A stretch of 64,000 bases of DNA from a virus, in the UHGV virus genome UHGV-1366640; one strand, written 5' to 3'. The notes under the pieces are model-generated. The model was not told the origin of the DNA. It did not search any database and saw nothing but the letters and a program-made list of their open reading frames with translations. Below are positions 12,678 through 15,424 of the stretch, piece by piece. The translations under genes and the position numbers were made by a program. Numbering within the stretch: position 1 is the first letter of the stretch; the number at the start of each line of letters is the position of its first letter.

Positions 12678-14003
12678 ATGGCAAGAACTCTTGCTGAATC
12701 TTATAATGGTGCTTCTGCTAAATTTGGTATAGGCACTTCTGCAAATGCACTTCTTAACAAATGGAACAAGGAAGTTTCGATCATCAATGAAGCTTTTAAT
12801 GGAAAAGCAAATCCGGATAAAGTTCTTGGTACTGCTATTCTTCTTGAAAATACTGAAAGACACATTAGAAACTGTGCTACAAGAAATGCAATGTTCAGTG
12901 GTGTCCTCAATGAAGGTACGACTACAGCTGATGTTTCTTACTTCAAACAGTTTGCGTTCAACAACTTGATTGCAGTATATCCGAACCTGATTGCCCCTGA
13001 ACTTGTTTCTTCTCAGCCGATGCTGTCAAGAGCTGGTTCTATCAGATACATTCGTGCTATCTATGGTAGCAATAAGGGTGGTATCAAGAAGGGTGATACA
13101 ATGTTTGGTCAGTATTCGCTTGGTGATCATCCTGCAGATGCTACATATTCCAGTGGCAGTGTTGAGGGTGAACTTCTTGGTACTGATGCTGCGACTACGA
13201 ATTTCAATCTCTCCTGGACTCCTGTAATTCCTGGAACTGTTGAAATCTTGTCGGGTGATGGTACTCTCACATATCGTGATGATTCCATTGGTGGTATCGT
13301 ATCTACAGCAGGTGCTGCTTCTGGTAGTATTGATTATGCAACTGGTAAGATCACATTCACTGCTGCTCCTGCTGCTGGATTCACTGCAAACTATGAATAT
13401 GACAATGTTGATACTCTCCCGATTCAGGCTCCTGAGATTCAGGTTAAGATAGTTGAGACTCCTGTCTATGCAAAATCCAGAAAACTCAAAACTCTCTTCA
13501 GCTTTGATAGTGATGCTGACCTCTCGAATGATTTTGGTATTTCTCTTTCTGCAGAAATCCTTTCGATGAGTTCTGCACAGCTTAAGAGAGAAATCGATGA
13601 TGAGATAATTATAGATCTTAGCACCAAGGGCACAGCTCCCGGGACTTCGTTTGATGCTACAGTTCCTGATGGTGTATCACTTGTTGATCACTATGCTGGT
13701 TTCCCAGCAGCTGTTGCAGTTGCATCGAATAACATCTGGAATGCTACTCAGGTTGGTAATGCATCGTGGATCATCGTTGGTCAGGATGCTGCTAACATTG
13801 TTGAAGCTATTCCGAGATTCAAATCTTTGGGTGTAGTGAATCCGAAGGGATCTCATCTTGCTGGTTATCTTGGTAATCTTCCTGTGTATAAGTCTACTGC
13901 TGTTGCAGCTGATGCATGGGTAGTTGGTTATAAAGGTGACAGTTTGTTTGAAGCTGGCTATATTTGGGCTCCCTATCTTCCTATTGAAAAACAAGTAGCT
14001 TAA
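12678..14003 (+). CDS. major capsid protein, 5' exon (apparent ORF; the true 3' end probably lies at an intron splice site near 13996-14001)
   Basis: ATG at 12678 after AAAGGA. A TTG at 12669 is also in frame. Position after protease/scaffold. Ala/Gly/Thr-rich. A 360-nt structured non-coding region follows immediately. Confidence 0.5.
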   Translation: MARTLAESYNGASAKFGIGTSANALLNKWNKEVSIINEAFNGKANPDKVLGTAILLENTERHIRNCATRNAMFSGVLNEGTTTADVSYFKQFAFNNLIAVYPNLIAPELVSSQPMLSRAGSIRYIRAIYGSNKGGIKKGDTMFGQYSLGDHPADATYSSGSVEGELLGTDAATTNFNLSWTPVIPGTVEILSGDGTLTYRDDSIGGIVSTAGAASGSIDYATGKITFTAAPAAGFTANYEYDNVDTLPIQAPEIQVKIVETPVYAKSRKLKTLFSFDSDADLSNDFGISLSAEILSMSSAQLKREIDDEIIIDLSTKGTAPGTSFDATVPDGVSLVDHYAGFPAAVAVASNNIWNATQVGNASWIIVGQDAANIVEAIPRFKSLGVVNPKGSHLAGYLGNLPVYKSTAVAADAWVVGYKGDSLFEAGYIWAPYLPIEKQVA

Positions 14004-15325
14004 TTCACAATGAATTAAGAATCCCTCAGTGAACTCAGGGAAACTCCTAAAGCTCAATCTACCAAAGTCATACAGTGATGTGTGACTGGATGATCTAATC
14101 AATCATGTATGGTAACAAGGGTTGAGATGTTACAATGGACAATCCTGATCCAAGTCACTCTTTTGTCAGAGTGAAAGGAGCAACGACTATTAAGTAGAGC
14201 CAAATGGTACGGCAGTCTTGGAGAGCGTAAGTCCGTTTAATTCGAAGTGCTGATAATCATATGATATAGTCTGGTCTATCCAATACTTAATTGGTACTGT
14301 TAGAGTTGTCAGTAGTCGAAAGACATAGATTGAATTAGTGAATTCTTATTTCCCAACATCCTCACATTGAAGGAGGTGAATGTAGTGTTAAAATATCAGT
14401 GTCAACTGTGTGACAGATCTACTTTTAAGAACTGGAGAGATTTTGTTACACATTTACGACGACACAAGATCCGTAAGAAAGAGTATTTTGAGAGATTTCC
14501 GTATATCTATCCAGAACCAGTTGGTGTTTATGGAGTTGACTATGTGACTTGTCCGATTTGTAATGATAATCGTGAATTTCAAAGTTTGACTCAACATTTG
14601 ATAAATAAACATAAGATCTTAACTGAAGAGTTCTTAGTCAAGTTTCCAGGAAAGAAACTTTTCACAGAAAAGTATTCTAAGATGCGAGCTGATTTTTGTA
14701 GAAAAGGCTTGACAAAGAATTGGGCGGATCCTGAATATCGTAAAAAGAGATCAGAATACTGTTCAGAATTTTTCAGTAAAATTAATTCTGGCAGTAAGAG
14801 ACCTGTTCAATCTGAAACAATGAAGAAGACTTTGAAACGATTGTGGAAAGATGAAGAATATTGTAAGAAGCAATCTGAACGAATGAAAGAAAGACACAAA
14901 TCTGGGGAGCTTGAAAGACAAGTTCTTAATGGTTTCGGGAAGAAATGGATCAAGCATGAAACTTGGTATGGAAAGATAGCAACTCTTAAAAGTTCTTACG
15001 AAGTCTATGTTGCTAAATTTCTTGATGAAAATAAGATCATGTATGAATACGAAAAGATGTATGAGTATCATGACTCTTATTCAGACAGGGATAGAAAATA
15101 TTATGCAGATTTCTATCTTCCAGATTATAATATTGTATTAGAAGTCAAAGCTTCTTGGGCAATAGATCGTTATCAAGTTCTAAGAGATAAGATGCTTGCA
15201 GTTTTAGAAACTGGTACACGATATAAATATGTCACTGAACGAGATTTGGGAAAACTCGTCAGCTTGAAAGAATTCGAAATGCTAATTCAGAGTAACAATA
15301 ACGAATGAGTACACAACTTCTTATG
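14001..15325 (+). mobile_element. group I intron (phage IA-like) with ORF in the P9 region; boundaries approximate
   Basis: The conserved core is visible. The R-like element ACGACTATTAAG (P7 5' strand, 14185-14196) and the S/J8-7 element AATCATATGATATAGTCTGG (14256-14275) match the Tetrahymena/T4-type consensus UCAUAAGAUAUAGUC at 14 of 15 positions. The GACTAT/ATAGTC pairing gives P7. There is a P/Q-like CAGGGAAA...ACAATCCTGA. A 34-codon stop-free frame downstream (15302-15424) has capsid-like composition. Confidence 0.55.
14385..15308 (+). CDS. intron-encoded putative homing endonuclease: two N-terminal C2H2-type zinc fingers plus C-terminal PD-(D/E)XK-like nuclease motif
   Basis: GTG start 6 nt after AAGGAGGTG (the ORF track gives TTG at 14367). 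Zinc fingers CQLCDRSTFKNWRDFVTHLRRH and CPICNDNREFQSLTQHLINKH. C-terminal YADFYLPDYNIVLEVKASW resembles the D...(E/D)xK core of DUF559/Vsr-like nucleases. Confidence 0.45.
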   Translation: MLKYQCQLCDRSTFKNWRDFVTHLRRHKIRKKEYFERFPYIYPEPVGVYGVDYVTCPICNDNREFQSLTQHLINKHKILTEEFLVKFPGKKLFTEKYSKMRADFCRKGLTKNWADPEYRKKRSEYCSEFFSKINSGSKRPVQSETMKKTLKRLWKDEEYCKKQSERMKERHKSGELERQVLNGFGKKWIKHETWYGKIATLKSSYEVYVAKFLDENKIMYEYEKMYEYHDSYSDRDRKYYADFYLPDYNIVLEVKASWAIDRYQVLRDKMLAVLETGTRYKYVTERDLGKLVSLKEFEMLIQSNNNE

Positions 15326-15424
15326 GACGAAACCTTCACAGGTCGTCAAGGTTATTCGACCAGCTATGCAAAGAAGATGACAGCGTCAGACTTCTATGCA
15401 ACCAATACTATTACACATTCCTAA
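15302..15424 (+). other. candidate 3' exon of the major capsid gene (open frame without start codon: ..LMDETFTGRQGYSTSYAKKMTASDFYATNTITHS*)
   Basis: Stop-free frame beginning right after the homing-endonuclease stop. No RBS or start codon. Frame-compatible splice pairs exist, for example U14001 joined to A15327, or U14000 joined to G15326. Confidence 0.35.

Follow-up and report, generated by a model that had tools for sequence, protein, structure and literature searches.

Within the 64,000-nt stretch of the virus genome UHGV-1366640 that was analysed (the window), positions 12678 to 15424 carry four successive features on the + strand, the strand of all parts of the intron and its exons described below. 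The list of open reading frames (ORFs) gives a 441-aa ORF (ATG 12678 to TAA 14001-03), a gap of 360 nt, a 313-aa ORF (14367-15308) and a 39-aa ORF (ATG 15305 to TAA 15422-24), which overlaps the preceding stop in an ATGA. The 441-aa ORF encodes a Gp23 major capsid protein (Pfam, 7.6e-44), and the gene 5' of it a T4-type prohead protease (Pfam), so that the two genes make up a T4-like head module. Only positions 14-327 of the 376 in the Gp23 profile were covered, and the C-terminus of the capsid protein is therefore missing from this ORF. A preliminary description of the locus had proposed that a group I intron with an endonuclease gene splits the capsid gene and creates its apparent stop codon. 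Our analysis agrees with this proposal, which has in its favour the homology at the exon junction, a sub-threshold covariance match and covariation among ten introns.

A search with the capsid protein recovered many full-length relatives, of 468-478 aa. Nine of these (P0002-P0010, 64-69% identity) are continuous through ...APYLPI-MSTQLLMDETFTGRQG..., about 25 more distant homologues are also uninterrupted across ...APY(L/M)P(I/V)M(S/T)TQLLMDETF..., and the C-termini of the relatives read ...GY(I/V)YAPY(L/M)PIMSTQLLMDETFTGRQGF(S/T)TSYGKKMT.... The uninterrupted segment is encoded in 80 viral contigs. The capsid ORF of the window agrees with these homologues as far as ...YIWAPYLPI and then departs into EKQVA and a stop, and the 39-aa ORF is exactly MSTQLLMDETFTGRQGYSTSYAKKMT..., which therefore sets the junction at PI|MST. 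In group I splicing the nucleotide ahead of the 5' splice site has to be a U and the one ahead of the 3' site a G. Combined with the junction established by homology, this requirement leaves a single solution, U13984 | intron 13985-15303 | A15304. Exon 1 (12678-13984) then consists of 435 codons from ATG 12678 plus the first two nucleotides of the Ile436 codon, beyond which the homologues run on, and exon 2 (15304-15424) of the A of that codon followed by MSTQLLMDETFTGRQGYSTSYAKKMTASDFYATNTITHS and TAA, colinear with the C-termini of P0002-P0038. The ligated exons would read CCT AT|A ATG (Pro-Ile-Met), the intron interrupting the Ile436 codon; the predicted sequence across the junction is ...CUUCCUAU|AAUGAGUACA... 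(in another rendering CTTCCTAT|AATGAGTACAC), and the predicted junction-spanning tryptic peptide of the spliced capsid is ...YIWAPYLPIMSTQLLMDETFTGR.

The spliced capsid protein has 475 aa against 441 aa for the unspliced one, a gain of 34 that is close to the 35 or so suggested in the preliminary description. It matches Pfam Gp23 (PF07068) with 170.3 bits (cut-off 24.4) over profile positions 14-356 of 376, compared with 151.1 bits for the unspliced protein and 160.3 bits for the junction first proposed. That junction, which paired U14001 with A15327, is displaced by the homologues, all of which place it at ...LPI|MSTQLL..., that is, at U13984 | A15304. The downstream frame had been taken for 34 codons of capsid-like sequence with no start; it is indeed capsid sequence by homology, and it comprises 39 codons from ATG 15305. 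Likewise, the non-coding stretch before the endonuclease ORF does hold the intron core, as had been claimed, except that the intron begins 16 nt upstream of the apparent stop: EKQVA and the TAA are its first 19 nt (13985 on). This tail is not conserved, since the homologous intron of contig L002 has NIDNSQLVA in its place. Capsid homologues stopping exactly at ...IEKQVA would, according to the preliminary description, have refuted the proposal; the sole protein found to end in this way is an identical sequence from the same contig (P0001), and the proposal withstands that check.

The ribozyme was identified with Rfam. RF00028 (Intron_gpI) aligned to 13973-14293 with 35.6 bits and an E-value of 5.4e-7 in a 1.7-kb search, or 2e-5 in the 64-kb window, where it was the sole Rfam match under E-value reporting; the group I core which the preliminary description had seen after the apparent capsid stop is thus the only one detected in the window. 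In the Rfam alignment CAAcGACUA (J6/7-P7) and GAUAUAGUCU (J8/7-P7') coincide with the consensus blocks of highest conservation in the model, and the elements first picked out as 'R-like' (CAACGACTA) and 'J8/7-P7' (GATATAGTCT) align to these blocks. The alignment also has a 56-nt insertion after P7 and a full deletion of the model's P8. The motif pair CAACGACTAT-N65-95-GATATAGTCT has a single occurrence in the window, and none of 100 shuffles contains it. The same pair was found in at least 120 IMG/VR viral contigs (L004-L123), several of them with two copies, and is therefore a common phage intron core, widespread in uncultured phages.

The intron of 1,319 nt (13985-15303) has the architecture of subgroup IA, on the evidence of RF00028, the intronless homologues and the covariation in the family. 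P1 (13981-13998) is formed by the exon end CUAU|U (13981-85) and the internal guide AGUAG (13994-98), with the 5' site after U13984, which makes a U·G wobble with G13995, and all 11 family members keep this pair as UG. Across the different insertion sites the guide changes in step with the exon end (CUAU/GUAG, CCAU/GUGG, CCGU/GCGG and CUGU/GCAG), at two exon-side pairs. P2 (13999-14019) is a 9-bp hairpin, CUUAAUUCA CAA UGAAUUAAG, seen directly in the sequence and in the minimum free energy (MFE) fold, and every relative has a hairpin of its own at this place. The core proper, with its P3/P7 pseudoknot and the J6/7 and J8/7 junctions, is present from P3 to P7. The 5' strand of P3, UCAGUG (14026-14031), pairs with UGCUGA (14248-14253), with compensatory changes (UA/CG, CG/UA and AU/GC/UA) recorded by covariation counting. 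Within 14035-14148, P4 joins UCAGGG (14035-40) to UCCUGA (14143-48), invariant in the family and previously noted as a P/Q-like pair, and P5 joins 14045-47 to 14137-39, with pair changes on both sides. P5 carries a branched extension (14053-59/14120-26 and 14060-64/14110-14, with hairpins at 14067-86 and 14090-14106), in three helices of which all 7+7+5 pairs change on both sides. P6 (14149-51/14177-79) and the P6a hairpin (14155-61/14168-74), together 14149-14179, show such changes in 2/3 and 6/7 pairs. After the conserved J6/7 GCAAC, the 5' strand of P7, GACUAU (14185-14190; Rfam consensus CAaAGACUA, invariant in 11), pairs with AUAGUC at 14266-71, the GACTAT/ATAGTC pairing already recognised as P7; the latter strand follows the GAU that ends J8/7 (14263-14271 in all; Rfam consensus GAUAUAGUC, invariant in the family).

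An insertion with two hairpins, P7.1 and P7.2, between P7 and the 3' strand of P3 is the hallmark of subgroup IA in the Michel-Westhof classification. Here the 57-nt segment 14191-14247 contains P7.1 (14199-201/14206-08) and P7.2 (14209-12/14233-36), the second of which covaries (AU/CG/GC and CG/UA), an arrangement of the IA2-like kind that assigns the intron to the level of IA. The P9 domain (14274-14330), read directly from the sequence and in part from the MFE fold, pairs GUCUAU (14274-79) with AUAGAU (14325-30) around three small hairpins, one of them GUC-GAAA-GAC, and the relatives share this layout, with CGAAAG. At the 3' end, omega-G15303 is the last intron nucleotide, and joining U13984 to any other G would fail to restore P-I-M-S-T-Q; a G stands at the equivalent place in 8 of 8 introns examined. 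Over half of viral group I introns have been reported as IA2 (PMC11835236). A promoter and terminator scan near the locus gave counts at or below shuffle expectation.

Homologous introns were found through truncated capsid homologues (P0024, P0039), through homologues of the intron ORF and through a specific P7-P7.1 DNA pattern, which matched 1 viral contig and 6 metagenome contigs. Six contigs have an intron at exactly the same insertion site, CC(U/C)AU| (L002, L211, L212, L213, L214 and L215), in three (L003, L126 and L127) a homologous intron lies 10 nt further upstream, at GCUCCGU|...G|AUAUGCC, and two have introns at nearby capsid positions (L124 and L125). The homologous introns score 38-48 bits with Rfam, those relatives bearing P8 45.6-48.1 bits. 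We aligned the window intron and ten capsid-gene introns with MAFFT, took the structure from the window and counted pairs explicitly. Standard pairs fill 96.9% of the 737 cells, compared with 35-41% when the partners are slid by 1-3 columns; 37 of the 67 pairs change on both sides, compared with 6-12 in the slid controls, and the covariation score of 0.533 (at most 0.078 when slid) was reached by none of 500 shuffles. The RNA fold is thereby established, through compensatory changes in P3, P5, the branched P5 extension, P6/P6a and P7.2. P4, P7 and P7.1 are invariant in the alignment and hence uninformative on covariation.

One helix of the core is missing. P8 belongs to the conserved core of group I introns, but in the window its place is taken by a 9-nt linker, UAAUCAUAU (14254-14262), in which no stem is possible (0.0 kcal/mol), and the model's P8 is deleted in the Rfam alignment. 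By comparison, 10 of 10 relatives have hairpins of 23-59 nt here (-3.8 to -14.6 kcal/mol), that of L002 being GAUCUUACAUUAAGGUGAGAUU. The flanks of the linker are intact, namely the 3' strand of P3, which ends at 14253, and J8/7, GAUAUAGUC. A partner for the linker was sought elsewhere in the intron, and none was found beyond self-overlap. We call this loss unusual on the basis of general knowledge and of the ten relatives; full-text literature searches for natural or engineered group I introns without P8 returned nothing relevant. The window intron clearly belongs to group I by descent, to judge from its sequence (78% identity to the L002 intron), and it matches the structural definition incompletely.

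The gene inside the intron encodes a putative homing endonuclease of 307 aa (14385-15308). Its likely start, GTG 14385, follows a Shine-Dalgarno sequence, AAGGAGGUGA (14370-14379), read directly from the DNA, and agrees with the public gene call P0121; its stop, TGA 15306-08, ends 5 nt inside exon 2 and overlaps the conserved capsid Met codon (ATGA). A bipartite helix can close off this ORF. The 5' strand (14331-14345) consists of UGAAUUAG at 14331-38, a U, and GAAUUC at 14340-45, and these pair respectively with CUAAUUCA at 15282-89 and GAAUUC at 15270-75 in the 3' strand (15270-15289), which lies within the endonuclease codons for …EFEMLIQSN. The duplex (-16.4 kcal/mol, strands 925 nt apart) encloses the ORF and leaves a 14-nt tail to omega-G. 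All seven same-site introns are able to form it (-7.5 to -19.8 kcal/mol), with compensatory differences in L211, L212, L214 and L215. The last 13 endonuclease codons (window 15270-15308) thus also serve as the 3' strand of an intron helix, and RNA structure may constrain the conserved C-terminal LIQSN no less than protein function does.

In the protein a helical linker joins two C2H2 zinc fingers of the Ros/MucR-like kind to a PD-(D/E)XK nuclease domain at the C-terminus. In an alignment of 15 homologues E206, D242, E253 and K255 are invariant, and the family profile matches structures of T7 endonuclease I (E 2e-4) with these residues aligned to the E20/D55/E65/K67 positions; the preliminary description had pointed out the two fingers and the C-terminal D...EVK motif, whose residues are invariant in the family and align with the catalytic ones of T7 endonuclease I. 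In the profile search the second finger matched the structure of the Ros zinc finger (6e-3). Individual family members match Pfam ROS_MUCR, zf-C2H2, Phage_endo_I, TnsA-like_N and NUMOD3. Phage_endo_I (PF05367) did not match the window protein alone and matched 3 of the 15 family members (best 2e-6). A phmmer search of the window endonuclease against PDB sequences gave no match, and a long composite DNA pattern for the endonuclease subfamily gave 0 matches in viral contigs. With AlphaFold, the single-sequence model was unusable (pLDDT 36); the model built from the 15-sequence alignment (pLDDT 87) has two small units for the fingers, then a long linker made of helices and, at the C-terminus, an alpha/beta domain. 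Together, the alpha/beta fold, the D...ExK triad and the upstream Glu identify the intron protein as a T7-endonuclease-I/TnsA-like nuclease of the PD-(D/E)XK fold with the classical triad.

Among PDB structures, Foldseek placed the model closest to the catalytic domain of I-Bth0305I, a homing endonuclease. The likeness is one of structure only: I-Bth0305I belongs to the EDxHD family, which is defined by a composite EDxHD/Vsr catalytic motif with a His as general base (PMC3239194), whereas the window protein has E...D...ExK and neither an invariant His nor EDxHD. It has no Pfam match to the family of I-Ssp6803I, a homing endonuclease of the PD-(D/E)XK superfamily (PMC3424549), and, unlike both of these enzymes (PMC3239194; PMC3424549), it uses C2H2 zinc fingers rather than NUMODs. 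When the superfamily was surveyed in 2012, the family of T7 endonuclease I was entered only as a junction resolvase (PMC3424549). The combination of C2H2 fingers with a T7-endonuclease-I-like domain is absent from the characterised homing families, and we found no biochemical characterisation of it as a homing enzyme. Its homing role is predicted from its location in an intron, from its homologues in same-site introns and from close homologues, some of which have the intron and others not.

Taken together, these results indicate, with a probability that we put at roughly 0.88, that 13985-15303 is a mobile group I intron of subgroup IA lying inside the Ile436 codon of a gp23-type capsid gene. 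We infer that it would work as follows. The pre-mRNA would fold into P1-P7 and P9, with the CUAU of exon 1 held on the guide GUAG through U13984·G13995, and exogenous guanosine would attack after U13984. Omega-G15303 would then enter the G site in P7 and the exons would be ligated to ...CCU AU|A AUG AGU..., giving the 475-aa capsid, ...APYLPI-MSTQLLMDETF.... The ribozyme would be the 5' 360 nt of the intron, and the endonuclease ORF, with its own Shine-Dalgarno sequence, would occupy the loop of the peripheral helix 14331-45/15270-89. The endonuclease would most likely cut intron-less capsid alleles near the sequence encoding APY(L/M)PIMSTQLL during co-infection (predicted intron-less site: GCTCCCTATCTTCCTATAATGAGTACACAACTTCTTATGGACGAA), and repair from the intron-bearing copy would then spread the intron, that is, homing.

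Four observations weigh against this interpretation. Without P8, the window copy cannot be counted on to be catalytically competent. We looked in the window for a P10 pairing of the guide region with exon 2 and identified none. No Rfam match in the 64-kb window reaches the curated gathering threshold: the covariance-model hit is significant by E-value, but its 35.6 bits fall under the 50 required, a shortfall explained by the deletion of P8 and by the long IA insertions. Finally, the genome is a metagenome assembly, with ENA ERZ27229772 as its source sample, and the sole other contig recovered (L216) is identical and probably from the same assembly. Nevertheless, splicing is probably retained in spite of the loss of P8, because the phage cannot do without its capsid gene and neither the 98-kb contig nor the endonuclease gene gives the impression of damage.

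The same observations could be read differently. In an account that we consider quite unlikely, the P8-less ribozyme is dead and the capsid is a gene in pieces, as has happened to nrdA of phage Aeh1, split by a homing endonuclease: a 441-aa polypeptide ending in EKQVA and a 39-aa peptide would assemble non-covalently, the latter made from ATG 15305 through translational coupling with the stop of the endonuclease gene (AUGA). The missing helix, the Rfam score under threshold and an exon 2 that opens with an ATG overlapping the endonuclease TGA all suit this idea. However, every other helix of the window copy is intact, P1, P3-P7, P7.1/7.2 and the P9 5' strand being paired as in the family, ATG 15305 is the conserved Met of PIMSTQ in intron-less homologues, no Shine-Dalgarno sequence precedes 15305, and the EKQVA tail, replaced by NIDNSQLVA in L002, is not conserved. 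Same-site relatives are also hard to reconcile with it. Exon 2 of L212 has no start codon (AGUCGC...), and in L214 (2080-2105) and L215 (2055-2080) a micro-exon of 10 nt (ATATGCCTAT) lies between two introns, flanked by the omega-G of an L003-type intron (…AAAAAG|) and by the 5' site of a window-type intron (CCTAT|). Such exons can be joined by splicing only, so the lineage depends on splicing.

It is also very unlikely that the intron is real and that its P8 deletion arose through faulty assembly or sequencing, or as a mutation that was lethal and left the genome non-viable, in which case the given sequence would not be that of a working phage. That the window stands alone among 11 family members in lacking P8, with no independent assembly found beside the identical L216, would fit such a defect, but the 98-kb contig has intact ORFs throughout, the endonuclease ORF retains every invariant residue, and the deletion is clean, leaving P3' and J8/7 undamaged on either side. 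As for the splice pair U14001/A15327, it is frame-compatible and has a G (G15326) before its 3' site, yet its product, ...EKQVA-Y-ETFTG..., can hardly be entertained: EKQVAY occurs in no homologue, all of which have PIMSTQLLMDETF, U14001 is paired with an A inside the P2 hairpin and makes no U·G with the guide, and the Pfam score is 10 bits under that of the PI|MST junction. A mobile IA intron inside the Ile436 codon thus remains the preferred explanation. A bolder extension of it, which we hold tentatively and with slightly more doubt than belief, is that the window contains a functional natural group I ribozyme without P8, in which P7.1/P7.2 and the large P5 extension compensate, and that its enzyme represents an uncharacterised lineage of homing endonucleases which repeatedly invades a stretch of ~50 nt in gp23-type capsid genes.

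The closest well-known parallel in layout is the nrdD (sunY) intron of phage T4, a group I intron of subgroup IA with a compact 5' core and the ORF of the endonuclease I-TevII placed 3' in a loop of the P9 region. The window intron resembles it in having the ORF after the core in a peripheral loop of the P9 region, a U·G at the 5' site and an omega-G at the 3' end. It differs in its host gene, a capsid gene instead of one for ribonucleotide reductase, in its enzyme, which is a PD-(D/E)XK protein with zinc fingers where I-TevII is of the GIY-YIG type, and in the lack of P8 and the presence of a large branched P5 extension. Among cultured phages, a blastn search of the ribozyme against 50,697 records gave a single weak, unannotated match, to Pseudoalteromonas phage H101. 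The matching segment (KR534323.1, 9084-9240) shares 70% identity with P4-P6 of the window intron and is probably a group I intron that went unannotated in this cultured phage.

Bacillus phage SP-15 (KT624200) offers a parallel in the host gene. Its gp23-type capsid gene (40% identity), annotated as the joined coding sequence SP15_032, is also split by an intervening sequence, which Rfam recognises as group I (38 bits), and the 'putative endonuclease' SP15_033 (Pfam Phage_endo_I), annotated within that joined coding sequence, is the closest cultured homologue of the window enzyme (30% identity, E 2e-13). The insertion site is different, however, with an exon 2 of ~197 aa in SP-15 and 39 aa here, and the intron sequences have no similarity detectable by blastn. 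Full-text literature searches for a paper on the SP-15 capsid intron yielded nothing relevant. Group I introns have also been described in the capsid genes of mycobacteriophage LittleE and lactococcal phage Tuc2009, where again a U ends exon 1 and a G ends the intron, and the LittleE intron was shown to be spliced in late expression (PMC3706429). Unlike the window capsid, those of LittleE and Tuc2009 are unrelated proteins from HK97-type siphoviruses, the LittleE intron has an antisense LAGLIDADG ORF, and no homology of either intron to that of the window has been shown.

Several observations on the related contigs concern the number and arrangement of introns. Both L214 (1-5918) and L215 (1-5918) contain five group I cores (CAACGACTA...ATATAGTC) within 5.9 kb, and in both the sequence after ...GSQG(L) suggests a third intron soon after the start of exon 2. 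There are four or five cores in L124 and three in L127, again in related gp23-type capsid regions, which points to capsid genes riddled with introns. Intron-rich regions of this kind recall the three-intron orf142 of phage Twort. Gut jumbo phages with ~18 introns per genome have recently been described (PMC12880540). The homologous intron of L003 (4953-6100), 10 nt upstream of the window site (GCTCCGT|...G|ATATGCCGATC), encodes a shorter enzyme of 235 aa with weak Pfam matches to Phage_endo_I and TnsA-like; related ribozymes therefore occupy staggered sites of one conserved segment with different enzymes. L002 has a second group I intron upstream in its capsid gene (63-1616), which scores 64.6 bits at 1268-1616, above the Rfam gathering score, and in which a Phage_endo_I-like ORF (63-1049) precedes the core, unlike the ORF placement in the window intron.

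Two neighbouring genes were also noted. Just 3' of the intron-rich capsid gene of L214 lies a 517-aa ORF (4330-5883) with a Cas12f1-like/TnpB zinc-ribbon domain (PF07282). In the window, the prohead protease ORF (10879-12483) encodes 534 aa, of which residues 44-197 only are Peptidase_S77; the remaining ~330 residues give weak Pfam matches of coiled-coil type, and the product may be a fusion of protease and scaffold.

Phages are classic hosts of group I introns that carry homing-endonuclease genes, and cases in capsid genes are already published or annotated; the general picture of phage mobile introns is unchanged by this one. What is specific here is a so far undescribed IA intron subfamily whose members cluster in a single short and conserved stretch of the capsid gene, an endonuclease architecture outside the characterised homing families and, in this copy, the loss of P8. 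For the capsid itself, gene callers cut the protein to 441 aa and add a spurious 39-aa ORF, as the public gene calls (P0001 and the 39-aa product) have likewise done, and the correct 475-aa protein matters for capsid phylogenies and for structural models derived from metagenomes. If the P8-less copy splices, it would amount to a natural experiment on the minimal group I core, and P8 would be dispensable in at least one natural scaffold.

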